Shown here piece by piece: positions 2,733-14,830 of a DNA stretch of 64,000 nt (positions are counted from its first letter, which is position 1; the number at the start of each line of letters is the position of its first letter). This DNA is from Escherichia phage JEP6. The position numbers were made by a program, and so were the translations under genes. Under the pieces are notes generated by a model that was not told where the DNA came from, ran no database searches, and saw only the letters and a program-made list of their open reading frames with translations. The stretch lies in the sequence record MT764206.1; one strand, 5' to 3'.

Positions 2733-3058
2733 TTAAACCATCCTTTAATACGTTGCCACAAAGTTTTCTGTTGAGCTTTGTTAACGCCAATTGAGCGAAT
2801 AACCGGTTGAGATTCCTGGAATTCTTTATAATCAGCAAGGTAAATTTCGTAAGCTGCATCTGTAAAAGAACTTATCGCTGCCATGAAATTATTGCGAATA
2901 CCTACTGGAGCATCTTTACTTTCACGAATAATCATGTATTTACCAGTCTTAATCTTTACGATAGTTCCAAGATAAGCTCCATGATACCAGATGTCCCAAC
3001 CCTCTTGAGTAGGTTCTGCACAACGACGAAGTTCATTGACAATTTCTAACTTGTTCAT
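2729..3058 (-). CDS. hypothetical early protein (motA-adjacent)
   Basis: 109 aa ORF. Confidence 0.5.
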
Positions 3059-3068
3059 TATTTATTCC

Positions 3069-3704
3069 TCACAGTTCAGATGCTACAGTGATTACGGCTT
3101 CAATGTTTTCTGCCGAGCGTTTAATGTCAAGATACACATTACCGTTTTTAGCGATTTTACATGACATTCCGATATCAGTAAATTTCTGAATATGATGTTC
3201 CATCATTTTGTATCCAAAAATTCGCATATTTCCGTTGTTGTTAATTTCAAAATTACGAATTCCGTGAGTGCGTTTTTCTAAAATAGCAAGATAGTTACTG
3301 CGGTAAGTTTCAACCTTTTTAAGAACAAATCCATTTTCATCTAACAGTTTTAACATGAAGTCTTTATCTTCTTCCATATCAGAAGTAATCTCGCGAGCTT
3401 TACGAGTTGCTCGTTTTTTCAGCAGTTCAGGAGCATTTTCCTGTGCATATAAAGTTGCTGCATTTGAAATAATATCCTGAGCTTCACCAGTAATGATTAA
3501 TCCATCACCAGATTTCTCCACCAGGCCTTTTTTAATCAATACCCCAATATTACTATTAACTACTGCGTTACCTAAATCTGGATGCACCTCACGAACTTCT
3601 GCGGCTGTAATGAAATCTTTCTTAGCAATGGTAATTAAAATCGCAGCAGTTTTTTCATTCAGAACATCGTTAGAAGCTTTGATGATGTAAGTTACTTTAG
3701 ACAT
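3069..3704 (-). CDS. motA: middle-transcription activator MotA
   Basis: 211 aa, MSKVTYIIKASNDVLNEKTAAILITIAKKDF... matches T4 MotA. Confidence 0.85.
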   Translation of the reverse strand: MSKVTYIIKASNDVLNEKTAAILITIAKKDFITAAEVREVHPDLGNAVVNSNIGVLIKKGLVEKSGDGLIITGEAQDIISNAATLYAQENAPELLKKRATRKAREITSDMEEDKDFMLKLLDENGFVLKKVETYRSNYLAILEKRTHGIRNFEINNNGNMRIFGYKMMEHHIQKFTDIGMSCKIAKNGNVYLDIKRSAENIEAVITVASEL

Positions 3705-3745
3705 TTTCTAATCTCCGTAATTCTGTATCAGTAGTTGATAGTTGT

Positions 3746-3775
3746 ATAGTACCACAGTATGCTTTGGTTGTAAAC
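3746..3775 (-). promoter_or_regulatory. early sigma70-type promoter (GTTTAC -35, TGG-TACTAT -10)
   Basis: minus strand GTTTAC, 18 nt, TGGTACTAT; about 40 nt upstream of motA ATG; member of 13-copy family. Confidence 0.55.
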
Positions 3776-3804
3776 CGTTTTGTGAAAAAATTTTAAAATA
3801 AAAA

Positions 3805-3826
3805 GGGAGAGCCGAGGCTCTCCCTA
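3805..3826 (-). terminator. GC-rich hairpin with U-run (intrinsic terminator-like)
   Basis: GGGAGAGCC-loop-GGCUCUCCC followed by U-rich run on minus-strand RNA. Confidence 0.45.
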
Positions 3827-3829
3827 AAA

Positions 3830-3979
3830 TTACTGCATGACTGTGATAACTATCATGATAACACGTTGAATTCCGAACGCAAGAAGACCTCCTGCTACAG
3901 CTGGAACAACACCTAAACCCGCCAGTAAAATGCCACCGGATACTAATGCAGCGCTTGTAATACCTATAAATGGACTCAT
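3830..3979 (-). CDS. small hydrophobic protein (49 aa), ATGA-coupled to gene 52 stop
   Basis: MSPFIGITSAALVSGGILLAGLGVV...; start overlaps gene 52 stop; below ORF-track size cutoff. Confidence 0.35.
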   Translation of the reverse strand: MSPFIGITSAALVSGGILLAGLGVVPAVAGGLLAFGIQRVIMIVITVMQ

Positions 3980-5304
3980 TTGATTTCCTCTAAATCTTTG
4001 GTGTATTCTGTAACTACATCAGTAGTTTTCCAATATTCATTTTCTTCTTTCTTAGCTTTAGCTTCTTCAGCAAGTTTCTTTGCTTCATCAGAAGTCATAT
4101 GAAAAATATTCATTCCAACTAGTTTATCAACATAAGAAGAATACATATCAATTTTAGAAAGTTCTTCGGTCAGTTCTTTGCGAGTTTTACCCTGCACAAC
4201 AATTTCACCTGAAATTACTTTCTTAATGAAATGTGCCTTGGCAAAGGCTAAACGAAATGCTGATTCAGTTTCTTTGATTTTGTTATCAATTCGTTTTTGG
4301 ACATAAGTTTTACGAACTTCAACGAAGTCTTTGATTAAATCAACTACGTTATCGTAAACTTGCAGCTTTCCTTTCTCATTAATAACGGTAATATTTTGGG
4401 AACGACGCTCAATCAACCCAAAGTCTTTCATAATTTTTGCATGGCGTTCTTCTTCATTATCGCTCAAAGAGTATTCTTTTCGGAATTTAACTTTGAATCC
4501 AAAACCATGCTCACCACAAGCATCATCCCATGTAATGAAGCCTTTATCTTCAAGTGGGTCTAAGATTTTACTCACATAAGTTTCACGATCATACTTATAC
4601 GGAATCTCAGTGATATGCATTTGAGTTCGTGAAGTAAACTTATATGTTCCACGAATTTCATATTGCCCATCAATTTCAACGACTTCACCGCGAAATTCTG
4701 GGAATTCTACCTTCGGTTTAGTTACTTTCTTTCCTTGAAGAGCTTGCAGTACAGCTTTCTTGACAGAAGAAACACTATGAGGAAGAATGTAAGTTGCATA
4801 ACCAGTTGCAATACCGGAAACACCATTAAGAAGAACAGTAGGAATAATAGGCAAATAGAAAGCAGGAGGAATGTGTTCTTTATCTTGATGTACCGGAGCA
4901 TATTCAGTATCTTTATATACGTTATAGAAATTTTTACTTACACGAGCAAAAATATAACGACTTGCTGCTGCTTTTTGAACGGTACGAGAACCAAAGTTTC
5001 CTTGACCATCTAACAGAGGAAAGTTATTATTCCAAGTGTTAGCCATCAAAGCACCTGCATCTTGTGCAGAGTTTTCACCATGATGATATCCAAGGTCCGC
5101 TACACCACCTGCAATAGAAGCGAGTTTGTGAAACTTATCTTTATTTCCTCGTGCCAAATCAAGAGCTCGAGCAATAACAAATCGTTGAACTGGCTTAAAT
5201 CCATCAATCATATTTGGAATAGCACGATTTTCAACCGTGTACATAGCATAAGCCAATGCTTCATTATCAATGATACTTTTTAAATCGCGATTATTCAGTT
5301 GCAT
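3976..5304 (-). CDS. 52: DNA topoisomerase II medium subunit (GyrA-like)
   Basis: 442 aa, MQLNNRDLKSIIDNEALAYAMYTVENRAIP... matches T4 gp52. Confidence 0.9.
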   Translation of the reverse strand: MQLNNRDLKSIIDNEALAYAMYTVENRAIPNMIDGFKPVQRFVIARALDLARGNKDKFHKLASIAGGVADLGYHHGENSAQDAGALMANTWNNNFPLLDGQGNFGSRTVQKAAASRYIFARVSKNFYNVYKDTEYAPVHQDKEHIPPAFYLPIIPTVLLNGVSGIATGYATYILPHSVSSVKKAVLQALQGKKVTKPKVEFPEFRGEVVEIDGQYEIRGTYKFTSRTQMHITEIPYKYDRETYVSKILDPLEDKGFITWDDACGEHGFGFKVKFRKEYSLSDNEEERHAKIMKDFGLIERRSQNITVINEKGKLQVYDNVVDLIKDFVEVRKTYVQKRIDNKIKETESAFRLAFAKAHFIKKVISGEIVVQGKTRKELTEELSKIDMYSSYVDKLVGMNIFHMTSDEAKKLAEEAKAKKEENEYWKTTDVVTEYTKDLEEIK

Positions 5305-11872: not shown

Positions 11873-11902
11873 ATTATACCACATCCTTGTGGTAAAGTAA
11901 AC
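11873..11902 (-). promoter_or_regulatory. early promoter (GTTTAC / TGGTATAAT)
   Basis: -35 hexamer overlaps gene 60 stop codon; 18-nt spacing. Confidence 0.55.
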
Positions 11903-12434
11903 TACTGGCTCATCCATTCTTTACGAAGGTCAGCATTATCTCCCATGAGCATTTCAAAAAGCTCTTTCCAGTTCTCAGGAAGTTTAACAACATCATAAAC
12001 TGGGTTCTGAATCATTTCACGGTATTCAGATTTTTCCAAAGAGCCAAGTCCCTTAATATAACGGATGCTATGTTTAGGTAGAGCATCTTTGGCACTCTCA
12101 TATTCAGCGACTGTATAAAACCATTCTTGTTTTTTACCGACCTGAGCGATGATTACAGGAGTTTTGACAAAGCGAATTCTTCCTTGTTCAAACAGTTCTG
12201 GCCAATTACTAAAAAATCCGAGCAGAGAAGGATAAATAGAACCTAATCCAATAATCTCTTAATTATGAGGTATTTCAATGGATAGCCCGAAGGCTATCCA
12301 TCGTGATCTGCGTCTGTCATAATAGCGACATTCGCATAGTTCATTGAAGAGGATTTAATAGAACGACGAACATTGTTCTGCGATTTATATTTTTTCATAT
12401 CAATGCTAGAAGAATCAATTTTTACAAATTTCAT
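11902..12434 (-). CDS. 60: topoisomerase II subunit gp60, translated with a 50-nt programmed bypass
   Basis: Codons 1-46 (12297-12434) end ...IMTDADHDG at take-off GGA, then UAG; codons 47-160 (11902-12246) resume LGSIYPSLLGFFSNWPELFEQ... after landing GGA; joined product 160 aa. Confidence 0.85.
12247..12296 (-). other. untranslated 50-nt coding gap of gene 60
   Basis: Minus-strand RNA UAGCCUUCGGGCUAUCCAUUGAAAUACCUCAUAAUUAAGAGAUUAUUGGA between matched GGA codons; take-off hairpin GGAUAGCC-UUCG-GGCUAUCC. Confidence 0.85.
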
Positions 12435-13233
12435 TATACACCTCGTAGAACTTTTCATCAGGAATCCAGCCGCGTTTAAATTCATTAAATGCTCGGCCGA
12501 ATAATTTTGAATTCACAGTTATATTATTAACTGATTTCCATTTAGCAACTCCCGTTCGTTTATAATGATCGGGGTCATATTTCGTGACGTACCATTCATA
12601 TAAATTTGGTATTAATTTTACAGCCTCTGGATTTGTCGCTGATTTATTATACCATGGTTTCGCTTTTTCAAGTTCAGCTGCTTTTGCAGTAGCAGCAACA
12701 GTATTTCCAATACCAACTAATTTTTCAGCTTTAATGCGTGGATCATTAACATGAAGACGAAAAACTTCGCCTTTTTCATTTTTAAAGCATGTCATGCCTT
12801 TAATTCCAGGAAGCTTAACACCTTTATTAACACCGCACCATTCCTTTGGGTTAAATGATCCTTTAATTAATAAGGCGCATTTACCCGATTTAATACTTCT
12901 CATTAAAACTTTATCTTTCATAAAGTTTTTTGACCATTCAGATACTGCTCTTTGATGGTAAATTCTAGCAATTTCATATAATTTACTAGAACGTAAATAT
13001 TTTTCAGTGTTTAACATTCTATTCATCGCATATGCCATTTCACGATTACGATGAATTTTATATAGTAGAAAATGTGCTAAAAAGTGTTCACGAAAAGTCA
13101 GTTTCACCAAATTTTCTTTATCATCAGAACCTCCCATTGATCTTGGAAGGATATGGTGAATTTCACCCTTAAATTTAGAAACGCGGGTTTTACCCCGCAC
13201 TATTAAGTCATTATAGATTTTTTCGTAATTCAC
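12415..13233 (-). CDS. mobA: HNH homing endonuclease (MobA-like) between genes 39 and 60
   Basis: HNH motif HHILPRSMGGSDDKENLVKLTFREHFLAH; overlaps 39 end by 23 nt and 60 start by 20 nt; listed first codon is GTG so true start uncertain. Confidence 0.7.
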   Translation of the reverse strand: MNYEKIYNDLIVRGKTRVSKFKGEIHHILPRSMGGSDDKENLVKLTFREHFLAHFLLYKIHRNREMAYAMNRMLNTEKYLRSSKLYEIARIYHQRAVSEWSKNFMKDKVLMRSIKSGKCALLIKGSFNPKEWCGVNKGVKLPGIKGMTCFKNEKGEVFRLHVNDPRIKAEKLVGIGNTVAATAKAAELEKAKPWYNKSATNPEAVKLIPNLYEWYVTKYDPDHYKRTGVAKWKSVNNITVNSKLFGRAFNEFKRGWIPDEKFYEVYNEICKN

Positions 13234-14761
13234 CTACTGTTATCCATTTACCATTAATCTGTACTTCATCATTTTCATTTACAATAATTGTATCACCATT
13301 TAGTTCGAGAGTAAACCACTCACCGTCTTCTTTTTCTTCAAACGCCTTTTCACCAAGAACTAATCCAGTGATTGCGCAAATATCAAACAGTTCTTTGTTT
13401 TTAAGCATGTCAGCATATGACATACCCCAGCTATTAAGAACTTTACCGCGCAATGGATAACCACCATGAAGTTCTTTATCGCGAACATCAATAAGATATC
13501 CGATAGCAGAATCACCCTCAGTCAAGAAAAGAGTAGTGTCAGCATCTTTACCGCAAAGATTCGCTTTAATATGTTTATGAACCTTAGCTTTAGAAGCCTT
13601 TTTAGCTGCTTTAGTTTCTGCTGCTTTTTCTGCCGCCAATTTACGAGCCAAAGCAGCTTCAATAATTGGCATTAAAATTGCTTCATTATTTAAAATAGCA
13701 CGTGAAATCTTTTTAGCATCAAGCTGAATATGACTACGGATTTCACCAAATGGAGAAGTCAAACGCTCTTTAGTTTGAGAATCAAATCGCATGTTTTTCA
13801 TATCACGAACAAACATAACGATAGTCAAACATTCTTTGACACGTGCTTTAGTTACATCAATTTTGAACTTACGTTTGATTTGTGGAATAAGGTCTTCACA
13901 AATATCATCCATAACACAGTCAATGTGATGACCACCATTCTTAGTATGAATGTTATTGACGTACGTTAATTGACGAAAACCATCCGGTGAACGACCAACC
14001 GCAATAGAACAGTTTTCTTGTTCTTGAACGATGGCGTGTTCATCATATTGGCGTGCATATTTCTTAAAATTACCCTGAACCTTTTTACCATTAAAGGTAA
14101 ATTGAATATCAGGATAAACTACTGCAAGTGTCTGGAGACGATCTAGTGTAATGTCAAGATAAACTTGGGACAGCTCATTAGTTTCAAATGACATAAAATC
14201 AGGAATGAAAGTAACACGAGTTCCTTTCCATTTTCCAGGAATAGTTTCCCATGATTTATTTTCCATGCCATTTGAACAACGAACTACAATATTATTTTGA
14301 CCATCACCAGTTTCACCGACAAACATCACAGAAAAAATGTTTGTCAAACTAGAACCAACACCATTCATACCGCCGGTGACGCGTTCTTTATCATCACCGA
14401 AGTTACCACCTGCTTTTGGAATAGTCCACGCAGCAACAGGACCAGGAATTTCTTCACCGGTAGGTGTTTTAACCATCGCTTGTGGAATACCACGACCGTT
14501 ATCTTCAACTGTTACCTGATTATTTTTAATGGTAACATTAATTTTATTTGCGAATTTAAACTTAGTACGAATACCTTCATCTACTGAGTTATCGATAATT
14601 TCATCAATAAGCTTAACAAGACCAGGTACATACTGAACACTTTCCCATTTACCAAACAGAAAGCGCTCATGCATTTCATTAGCAGAAGAGCCAATGTACA
14701 TGCCGCTACGCTTTTTGATATGTTCAATATCGCTCAGAATTTTAATTTCATTCTTAATCAT
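13211..14761 (-). CDS. 39: DNA topoisomerase II large subunit, ATPase part (GyrB-like)
   Basis: Start taken at second Met (MIKNEIKILSD), about 516 aa; GHKL ATPase motifs VEDNGRGIP and GMNGVGSS. Confidence 0.9.
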   Translation of the reverse strand: MIKNEIKILSDIEHIKKRSGMYIGSSANEMHERFLFGKWESVQYVPGLVKLIDEIIDNSVDEGIRTKFKFANKINVTIKNNQVTVEDNGRGIPQAMVKTPTGEEIPGPVAAWTIPKAGGNFGDDKERVTGGMNGVGSSLTNIFSVMFVGETGDGQNNIVVRCSNGMENKSWETIPGKWKGTRVTFIPDFMSFETNELSQVYLDITLDRLQTLAVVYPDIQFTFNGKKVQGNFKKYARQYDEHAIVQEQENCSIAVGRSPDGFRQLTYVNNIHTKNGGHHIDCVMDDICEDLIPQIKRKFKIDVTKARVKECLTIVMFVRDMKNMRFDSQTKERLTSPFGEIRSHIQLDAKKISRAILNNEAILMPIIEAALARKLAAEKAAETKAAKKASKAKVHKHIKANLCGKDADTTLFLTEGDSAIGYLIDVRDKELHGGYPLRGKVLNSWGMSYADMLKNKELFDICAITGLVLGEKAFEEKEDGEWFTLELNGDTIIVNENDEVQINGKWITVGELRKNL

Positions 14762-14830
14762 CACTTATCCTCGTTTGGTTTCGGGAATATTATACTCCGG
14801 TAATCATAAAGCTAAAGGCCCGAAGGCCTT

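Follow-up and report, generated by a model that had tools for sequence, protein, structure and literature searches.

The 39/mobA/60 locus of Escherichia phage JEP6 matches the MobA mobile element of T4-like phages

Introduction

Among programmed translational recoding events, the ribosomal hop in gene 60 is the classic extreme. The T4 39/mobA/60 locus with its 50-nt translational bypass is reportedly the one associated with the names of Huang et al. (1988) and Weiss et al. (1990).

Ribosome bypassing at the T4 gene 60 site has been experimentally established, according to Manning & Atkins 2022 (bioRxiv 10.1101/2022.08.31.505936), whose example phage is HY01. They give the MobA element a size of ~1097-1106 nt, with an in-frame gp39 C-terminal extension (CTE) of ~44 aa, a MobA protein of 269-279 aa whose gene overlaps both neighbours in another frame, and a gene 60 NTE of 44-46 aa. 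The element also carries homR, a recoded copy of the segment that it deletes, at 67-81% nucleotide identity. In the bypass cassette of this element (Bonocora et al. [quoted passage not shown] Endonuclease and bypass are described as moving jointly and as younger than the host gene. In the cryo-EM structure of T4 topoisomerase II, the gp39 C-terminus and gp60 N-terminus form a pendant 'TOPRIM insertion' of ~70 aa that is proposed to aid assembly (PMC11461880).

The JEP6 region is almost certainly a resident MobA mobile element of T4-like phages (Manning & Atkins clade 1). This system is known and not new; as relayed by Manning & Atkins 2022, the same conclusion was reached by Bonocora et al. 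2011 (PNAS 108:16351).

Results

Gene layout and the split topoisomerase subunit

The window (the whole 64,000-nt stretch of record MT764206.1) is a T4-like Tequatrovirus genome with a G+C content of ~35%, and is ~96% identical to its nearest genomes, compared over 25 kb. Its minus strand encodes gene 39, mobA and gene 60 in this order, covering 2860 bp from the start of gene 39 to the stop of gene 60.

Gene 39: 13211..14761, minus strand; ORF1 of the split topoisomerase II large subunit, 516 aa plus stop
mobA: 12415..13233, minus strand; intact HNH homing endonuclease gene, 272 codons plus stop, GTG start
Gene 60: 12434..11902, minus strand; ATG at 12434, stop at 11904-11902, 160 aa

Gene 39 starts at ATG 14761, one codon after the GTG 14764 at which the mechanical ORF list begins it, and ends at a TAA stop (13213-13211). 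mobA shares 23 nt (13211-13233) with gene 39 and 20 nt (12415-12434) with gene 60, each time in a different frame. The original prediction, which had gene 39 at 13211-14761, a separate gene 60 and a 272-codon HNH ORF overlapping both neighbours, was correct in all three ORFs and in both overlaps.

The GHKL ATPase, transducer, Toprim and TOPRIM_C domains of a GyrB-like type IIA subunit are present when gp39 and gp60 are taken together. Pfam matches to HATPase_c and DNA_gyraseB occur in gp39, where GyrB/ParE profiles align over residues 4-476, and gp60 matches TOPRIM_C (E 6e-8). The two cistrons are indeed separate, but the break does not fall between an ATPase part in gene 39 and a Toprim/C-terminal part in gene 60, as was first proposed. 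It lies inside Toprim: the first half with the EGDSA motif is encoded by gene 39, and the second half (DADHDG) and TOPRIM_C are encoded by gene 60. Pfam detects Toprim only in the contiguous protein of phage RB9 and not in the separate gp39 and gp60. This RB9 match is weak (E 0.0047, 17.5 bits; curated cut-off 23.1) and covers residues 410-492, within which the split at residue 473 falls.

An intact HNH endonuclease gene

At 272 codons in a genome of ~35% G+C, the predicted mobA is no chance ORF. The product matches PHROG 655 'homing endonuclease' (E = 2.5e-57) and PHROG 12434 'HNH endonuclease' (2e-11), and scores marginally under the gathering threshold of Pfam HNH PF01844 (20.1 bits against 21.4; E 7e-4). 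Its motif, HHILPRSMGG...ENLVKLTFREHFLAH (residues 26-54), fits the HH-x(13)-N-x(8)-H-x(3)-H pattern of HNH (beta-beta-alpha-Me) endonucleases and aligns with the HNH of a group II intron maturase (6me0) and with Cas8-HNH. All of 19 homologues share N41, H50 and H54, and conservation of H26 and H27 is at least 90%. The HNH residues also persist in full-length homologues of 48-58% identity. The HNH-family similarity on which the original reading depended is thus found. Whole-model fold searches with MobA returned no significant match. An assignment to IscB-HNH was set aside, the NCBIfam match being only faint, and sub-threshold matches to Gp6_C-III (Pfam) and T4 gp6 (PDB) were taken as chance.

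The first listed codon of mobA is GTG, as was initially noted, and its real start was then considered unresolved. Comparison largely settles the question: GTG 13233, which comes straight after an in-frame TAG, is the best-supported predicted start, with residues 1-11 conserved family-wide. This conservation argues against the GTG at codon 12 (13200) annotated in MT984581, a codon that is GCG in HY03. The ATG at codon 33, used in PD112, was rejected as well, since it is positioned within the HNH motif.

It is improbable that the cassette is a dead remnant, with mobA silent or inactive and nothing but the split gene and the bypass maintained. In favour of this reading, mobA is listed in the T4 reference record as a defective 37-aa fragment together with 60.1, the JEP6 gene starts with GTG and no convincing Shine-Dalgarno sequence was found upstream of it, and the endonuclease has been repeatedly lost or pseudogenised in other lineages (Manning & Atkins). 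However, mobA is intact over 272 codons in nine of the ten sequences examined (JEP6 and eight of nine carrier records). Among eight carriers compared, with the T4 reference left out, the protein varies by 0-1 residues, although 2-15 nucleotides differ over the whole element, and the catalytic H/N/H residues are conserved. The frameshifts of the T4 reference are missing from resequenced T4 (MT984581), examined at base level, and in the other T4 records the mobA interior aligns as a single block with the same span of 776 nt. The T4 reference mobA (AF158101/NC_000866), which has 11 extra bases in the stretch equivalent to JEP6 13101-12894, probably holds a sequencing error.

Element boundaries and distribution

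The contiguous gene 39 of phage RB9 (605 aa) was used as the reference for the insertion boundaries. Comparison with an uninterrupted gene, suggested when the locus was first noticed, defines them to the nucleotide.

Whole MobA mobile element: 12238..13342, minus strand; 1105 nt, replacing 63 nt (parental codons 474-494) in the alignment with RB9
Gene 39 parental part: 14761..13343, minus strand; codons 1-473, one difference from RB9 gp39
gp39 CTE: 13214..13342, minus strand; 43 element-encoded codons, FEEKEDGEWFTLELNGDTIIVNENDEVQINGKWITVGELRKNL
Gene 60 NTE: 12297..12434, minus strand; codons 1-46, a 30-aa unique nascent-peptide signal region plus the 16-aa homR
Gene 60 parental part: 11902..12246, minus strand; codons 47-160 plus stop, TOPRIM_C, first 9 nt element-derived

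The 5' break follows gene 39 codon 473 (GEKA). The 3' break lies 9 nt past the landing codon, where JEP6 has TTA GGT TCT and the parental gene TTA GGA AGC; the product of gene 60 codons 47-160 is identical to RB9 gp39 residues 492-605. The element codes in three overlapping frames for the 43-aa gp39 tail, the 272-aa MobA and the 46-codon gp60 head. The CTE is missing from RB9 gp39 and was found in nine of nine carriers examined. homR is a copy of the deleted parental segment recoded by synonymous and conservative changes (SSMNYANVAIMTDADHDG versus parental ENLNYHNIAIMTDADHDG), with 74% nucleotide identity over 43 nt. The JEP6 element falls in the published ranges in total length, MobA, NTE and homR identity, with a CTE of 43 aa against the published ~44.

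Among 539 matching phage records, 41 carry the insert, and most of the others have a contiguous gene that aligns in two pieces spanning 1818 bp. mobA and the NTE plus gap co-occur in 41 of 41 records, consistent with the observation that the endonuclease gene and the bypass sit together at the split point. The carriers are a scattered minority among phages whose flanks are ~96-97% identical. Between carriers, divergence is 2-16 times lower in the element than in the flanks (0.18-1.8% versus 1.1-3.8%; nine of nine comparisons in this direction, p 0.03 to 4e-9). With HY01, for instance, 2/1105 positions differ in the element and 51/1755 in the flanks (Fisher p = 4e-9). Judged from these divergences, the MobA element is younger than the sequence on either side. 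A metagenomic contig and Acinetobacter phage Stupor carry a divergent cassette of the same layout.

These data bear on a second alternative, that the split came first and that the unbroken gene in T2, T6 and RB9 is a secondary fusion. The cryo-EM paper leaves open 'gene-fusion or gene-separation' (PMC11461880), and an Aeromonas clade with secondary re-fusion is described by Manning & Atkins. In those published re-fused genes, however, both CTE and NTE are kept, whereas the contiguous genes show no trace of either. The scattered distribution of carriers and the younger age of the element also argue against it, and the element's own copy of the replaced 63-nt segment fits an invading cassette and not an ancestral gene. 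We consider a secondary fusion very unlikely. The contiguous relatives, the boundaries against RB9 and the low divergence of the element all favor the selfish cassette in a once-continuous gene that the original prediction had put forward.

Bypass signals in gene 60

Gene 60 has a GAGG Shine-Dalgarno sequence 6 nt 5' of its ATG, and its NTE ends with the take-off GGA (12299-12297).

Coding gap: 12247..12296, minus strand; 50 nt, from UAG 12296-12294 through the landing GGA 12249-12247
Take-off stem-loop: 12276..12303, minus strand; 28 nt, 12 contiguous bp closing a UUCG tetraloop

The take-off and landing codons match (GGA/GGA) and the UAG stop is next after take-off. The 5' arm of the stem-loop holds both the take-off GGA and the UAG, and the loop is closed as CC-UUCG-GG. 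Its folding energy is -22.2 kcal/mol (z = -5.3), with 0 of 200 shuffles equally stable. A mini-SD GAG (12258-12256) lies 6 nt ahead of the landing GGA. The layout is that of the T4 misc_feature 'translational bypass region', from which two bases differ, and as read from the nucleotides the JEP6 gap carries all known bypass signals. An Rfam search found neither intron RNA nor a curated recoding family; a hit to TeloSII_ncR30 (24 bits, gathering score 86) was regarded as a chance match.

Gene 60 is broken into two or three unrelated fragments in the annotation of several public records, but the idea that its interruption is a sequencing or assembly error or a pseudogene without recoding is highly improbable, given the same 50-nt gap with all signals in 41 independent records, a divergent version of it in other clades, and the experimental evidence for bypassing at the T4 site.

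Comparison with T4 and HY01

JEP6 and T4 share the gene order, insertion site and 2860-bp span, as well as the take-off and landing GGA, UAG, UUCG hairpin and GAG mini-SD. Resequenced T4 differs at 15/1105 element positions, and the flanking topoisomerase sequence is 3.5% diverged. The two substitutions in the gap change CUAUAG (T4) to CCAUUG (JEP6), so that a second in-frame UAG is lost in JEP6. The T4 take-off stem has 10 bp including a G-U pair (-17.5 kcal/mol for the comparison segment), whereas JEP6 has 12 uninterrupted pairs (-22.2). The peptides differ by V11I and L18S in the nascent peptide and A169T in MobA.

The mobA interior is 100% identical in JEP6, HY01, PEC04 and pSe_SNUABM_01, and in the last, a Salmonella phage, the NTE and gap are also 100% identical. 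The element of Escherichia phage HY01 has, as published by Manning & Atkins 2022, the same length, replaced-segment size, 43-aa CTE, 46-aa NTE and 9-nt extension; its flanks are 2.9% diverged and the host backbone is the only difference.

Given its longer, uninterrupted take-off stem, the lost second UAG and the V11I and L18S changes, the HY01-type allele in JEP6 may set a bypass efficiency different from that of the T4 laboratory allele, a tentative suggestion that we regard as rather unlikely to hold. The alleles recombine as a mosaic, with ELT1 combining the gap variant with a T4-type peptide. Since alleles with differing signals recombine in this way, natural populations may be tuning the gp60:gp39 ratio. 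If true, this would provide a natural-variation handle on the bypass mechanism and not a new system.

Discussion

No sequence feature of JEP6 contradicts the MobA-element model. By analogy with T4 experiments, MobA would nick the uninterrupted gene of a cassette-free phage in the homR-equivalent region during mixed infection, and recombinational repair off the carrier genome would transfer the tails and the gap together with mobA to the recipient. Lying ~20 bp from the nick site, the 50-nt gap would break up the MobA recognition site, so that the carrier is expected to be immune to its own MobA. If JEP6 behaves like T4, the nascent peptide, the take-off hairpin, the UAG and the GAG mini-SD would together drive about half of the ribosomes to leave GGA-46 and resume on the matching GGA 50 nt further on. 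An active topoisomerase could then be rebuilt from gp39 and gp60, together with gp52, via the element-encoded tails. The linkage of the gene 60 hop to MobA explains why such an odd device exists, because it gives the selfish endonuclease immunity to its own cutting.

MobE and other free-standing T-even HNH homing endonucleases have the same N-terminal HNH module (MNYxKIYxxLI...HHIxPxxxGG...NLVxLTxxEH), and in MobE-type enzymes, as in MobA, a variable C-terminal DNA-binding region follows it. In Aeromonas phage Aeh1, the host gene nrdA is likewise split and rescued by added tails. MobE is normally intergenic, and unlike JEP6 the MobE-type and Aeh1 nrdA systems are without a ribosomal bypass cassette. 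Intein and group I intron endonucleases are also selfish, reside within an essential conserved gene and have built-in product restoration, but this is achieved by splicing, whereas JEP6-type rescue consists of translational hopping and the non-covalent reassembly of two polypeptides. An intein or a group I intron with an endonuclease was rejected for the JEP6 locus, where searches returned no Pfam match to a Hint/intein domain and no Rfam match to an intron RNA.

Conceptually the JEP6 copy brings nothing new; it does show that a recoding and mobile-element locus of this complexity is recognisable from raw sequence. The only slightly fresh points are the stronger take-off hairpin variant and the probable error in the T4 reference mobA. 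Public annotation of the locus is often wrong, with gene 60 in fragments and three different mobA starts, and JEP6 yields a correctly delimited annotation where many public records err.

A split topoisomerase gene of a known kind

The phage is a T4-like Tequatrovirus, not T4 itself. The first 25 kb of the window are ~96% identical to PEC04, HY03 and PD112, and ELT1 is the closest record at the topoisomerase locus (99.2%), whose neighboring genes are rIIA, rIIA.1, 39.1, 39.2, goF and cef. The large subunit of topoisomerase II is encoded in separate cistrons with an endonuclease gene between them:

14761-13211, minus strand: gene 39, ATG 14761 to TAA 13213-13211, 516 aa
13233-12415, minus strand: mobA, 272-codon ORF, GTG 13233 to stop 12417-12415, with HHILPRSMGG...ENLVKLTFREHFLAH at residues 26-54
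12434-11902, minus strand: gene 60, ATG 12434 to stop 11904-11902, GAGG Shine-Dalgarno 6 nt 5' of the ATG
12303-12276, minus strand: take-off stem-loop within gene 60, 28 nt, UUCG tetraloop

A mechanical ORF list makes gene 39 one codon longer, from an upstream GTG at 14764. The mobA gene shares 23 nt with gene 39 and 20 nt with gene 60, in each case in another reading frame. Gene 60 is read for 46 codons up to GGA 12299-12297, meets UAG 12296-12294, and resumes past a second GGA at 12249-12247. The minus-strand ORFs, overlaps and motif were rechecked in the sequence, and the coordinates and description of 39 / mobA / 60 in the original prediction proved correct.

The locus corresponds exactly to the system described by Bonocora et al. 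2011 (PNAS 108:16351), as summarized by Manning & Atkins 2022, and was already known; the value of the call lies in the correct recognition of a complicated locus. According to that summary, MobA nicks the insert-free T2 gene in the region equivalent to homR, the recoded copy of the deleted parental segment, and T2 acquires both the split and the gap through the ensuing repair. Self-nicking is blocked by the gap and not by the homR polymorphisms. Manning & Atkins 2022 use HY01 as their illustration; between HY01 and the window the mobA interior is 100% identical.

Public records of the carriers ELT1, e11/2, HY03, PD112 and CE1 (L003, L007, L008, L009 and L010) annotate gene 60 variably, as two separate fragments, as the downstream 97-aa ORF only, or with the PDB-chain label '70S structure prior to bypassing'. 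Their mobA labels are 'MobE', 'hypothetical protein' and '14.7 kDa protein'.

Boundaries and content of the element

Comparison with phage RB9 (L001), which has an uninterrupted gene 39 of 605 aa, places the insertion boundaries at the nucleotide level. Residues 1-473 of gp39 differ from RB9 1-473 at one position, and gp60 residues 47-160 are identical to RB9 residues 492-605. Nucleotide similarity breaks after codon 473 (GGT GAA AAG GCG, then TTT GAA GAA; 13343/13342) and returns 9 nt past the landing codon (12238/12237), where the window has TTA GGT TCT versus parental TTA GGA AGC, with identity from ATT TAT CCT onward. The element therefore spans 13342-12238 (1105 nt). It stands in place of 63 nt of the parental gene (codons 474-494) and comprises a 43-aa C-terminal extension of gp39 (CTE), mobA, a new gp60 N-terminus (NTE, codons 1-46) and the 50-nt gap. 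The first 30 aa of the NTE are unique, and the next 16 aa repeat the deleted segment in recoded form (SSMNYANVAIMTDADHDG, parental ENLNYHNIAIMTDADHDG; 74% nucleotide identity). Manning & Atkins 2022 report elements of 1097-1106 nt, a CTE of ~44 aa, an NTE of 44-46 aa, MobA of 269-279 aa, homR identity of 67-81% and, in clade 1, elements that reach 9 nt beyond the landing codon.

RB9 also carries a 372-nt ORF (RB9_005, L001 3653-4024) between 39.1 and 39.2 that the window, RB59 and ELT1 lack, a further small indel polymorphism adjoining the topoisomerase gene. Opposite gene 39 (13273-13409, plus strand), a sub-threshold Rfam match to TeloSII_ncR30 (24.4 bits, gathering score 86, E 0.013) was treated as chance.

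The original prediction placed the split between the ATPase and Toprim parts. Instead, gp39 carries HATPase_c, the DNA_gyraseB transducer and the EGDSA half of Toprim, and gp60 the DADHDG half and TOPRIM_C. The contiguous RB9 protein has a weak Pfam Toprim match (residues 410-492, E 0.0047, under the curated cut-off) that covers the break, so the split lies inside Toprim, as also stated in the literature, including the cryo-EM study of T4 topoisomerase II (PMC11461880). In that structure the tails of gp39 and gp60 together make up a ~70-aa pendant attached to Toprim, without effect on activity, for which the authors propose a role as assembly bracket.

The endonuclease and its start codon

MobA matches PHROG 655 'homing endonuclease' (E = 2.5e-57, residues 1-265), bearing out its predicted HNH-family similarity. 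The Pfam HNH match (residues 24-43, 20.1 bits) is slightly below the 21.4-bit cut-off, and PDB sequence matches are to the HNH domains of a group II intron maturase and Cas8-HNH. Across 19 aligned homologues, N41, H50 and H54 do not vary, and H26 and H27 vary little. The AF2 model (pLDDT 83) has strands at 24-27 and 42-45 and a helix at 47-61. Global fold searches with it gave no significant match, so HNH membership is based on sequence and not on fold.

GTG was rightly listed as the first codon, and the doubt originally attached to it is largely removed by comparison. An in-frame TAG immediately 5' of GTG 13233 excludes any start further upstream. Residues 1-11 (MNYEKIYNDLI) fit a family-wide conserved motif, with M1 aligned at the same position in 17/19 sequences; in the homologue from Acinetobacter phage Stupor the equivalent codon is ATG, and a 56%-identical metagenomic homologue starts GTG AAT TAC, as here. 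Two later starts were rejected: GTG codon 12, which is GCG in HY03, and the first ATG, which lies inside the HNH motif. No good Shine-Dalgarno was seen before GTG 13233, which is nevertheless the best-supported start. Public records use three starts, giving 272, 261 and 240 aa.

In the T4 reference (NC_000866/AF158101), mobA is recorded as a defective fragment of 37 aa together with 'gp60.1'. The reference sequence contains 11 extra single bases (window 12894-13101, NC_000866.4 3449-3668). Resequenced T4 (MT984581) and the seven further carrier phages compared base by base lack them and have the 272-codon ORF intact. In other T4 records (HM137666, KJ477684-6, OZ209023 and others) the mobA interior aligns in one piece over the same 776-nt span. 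These alignments point to a sequencing artefact, and the 'mobA pseudogene' of laboratory T4 is probably a legacy error and not biology.

Distribution and divergence

The locus is matched by 539 phage records, 41 of which cover at least 80%. Nearly all others give two-part alignments over a span of 1818 bp, the contiguous gene; such relatives, whose absence would have spoken against insertion, are abundant. Full or partial mobA occurs in 42 records, one a gene 39 fragment record (two phage ECO4 records matching a 53-bp stretch only are left out), and NTE plus gap in 41, with both sets made up of the same 41 genomes. The element is less diverged than its flanks in 9/9 carrier comparisons, with mismatches to the window of 2/1105 versus 51/1755 in HY01 (p = 4e-9) and 15/1105 versus 62/1755 in resequenced T4 (p = 3e-4). 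By this measure the element is of more recent origin than the flanking sequence. Patchy distribution, strict linkage and relative youth support the proposed selfish HNH cassette inserted into a once-continuous gene.

Within the element, nucleotide differences between carriers are concentrated at the start of the CTE, over ~50 nt (13292-13342, the element's 5' end), and, as in GAC/GAT, GGT/GGC, CTC/TTC and GAA/GAG, separate T4-type from HY01-type. The cluster may mark the end of recombination or co-conversion tracts.

The same architecture, with a diverged MobA, occurs in a metagenomic contig (56% identity; GGG/GGA with UAG) and an Acinetobacter phage (49% identity; GGU/GGC with AGG). The contig (L011, Logan ERR11525658, 48.8 kb) carries its element at 2940-4020, with a GTG start for MobA, GGG take-off, GGA landing, UAG, a GGGUAGCC-UUCG-GGCUACUC hairpin and a GAG mini-SD. 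This element is similar to those of the Proteus-type clade in Manning & Atkins, and the downstream genes are rIIA-like and rIIB-like, as in T4.

Bypass signals and their allele

Every published bypass signal is found in gene 60: matched take-off and landing codons (GGA/GGA), UAG directly after take-off, a gap of exactly 50 nt and GAG 6 nt 5' of the landing codon. The take-off hairpin folds at -22.2 kcal/mol (z = -5.3; 0/200 shuffles equally stable), versus -17.5 kcal/mol for a T4 segment offset by a few bases. Two gap substitutions (CCAUUG where T4 has CUAUAG; 12247-12303) turn a G-U into G-C and an A/G mismatch into G-U, giving 12 uninterrupted stem pairs; with them the second in-frame UAG of T4 is lost. 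Relative to T4, the nascent-peptide region carries V11I and L18S (12380-12404). The allele combining the stronger hairpin with L18S may alter bypass efficiency, a minor point. The NTE plus gap segment is 100% identical in pSe_SNUABM_01, and the CCAUUG variant is common to HY01 and ELT1. ELT1 pairs this HY01-type gap with a T4-type peptide; the alleles are therefore mosaic.
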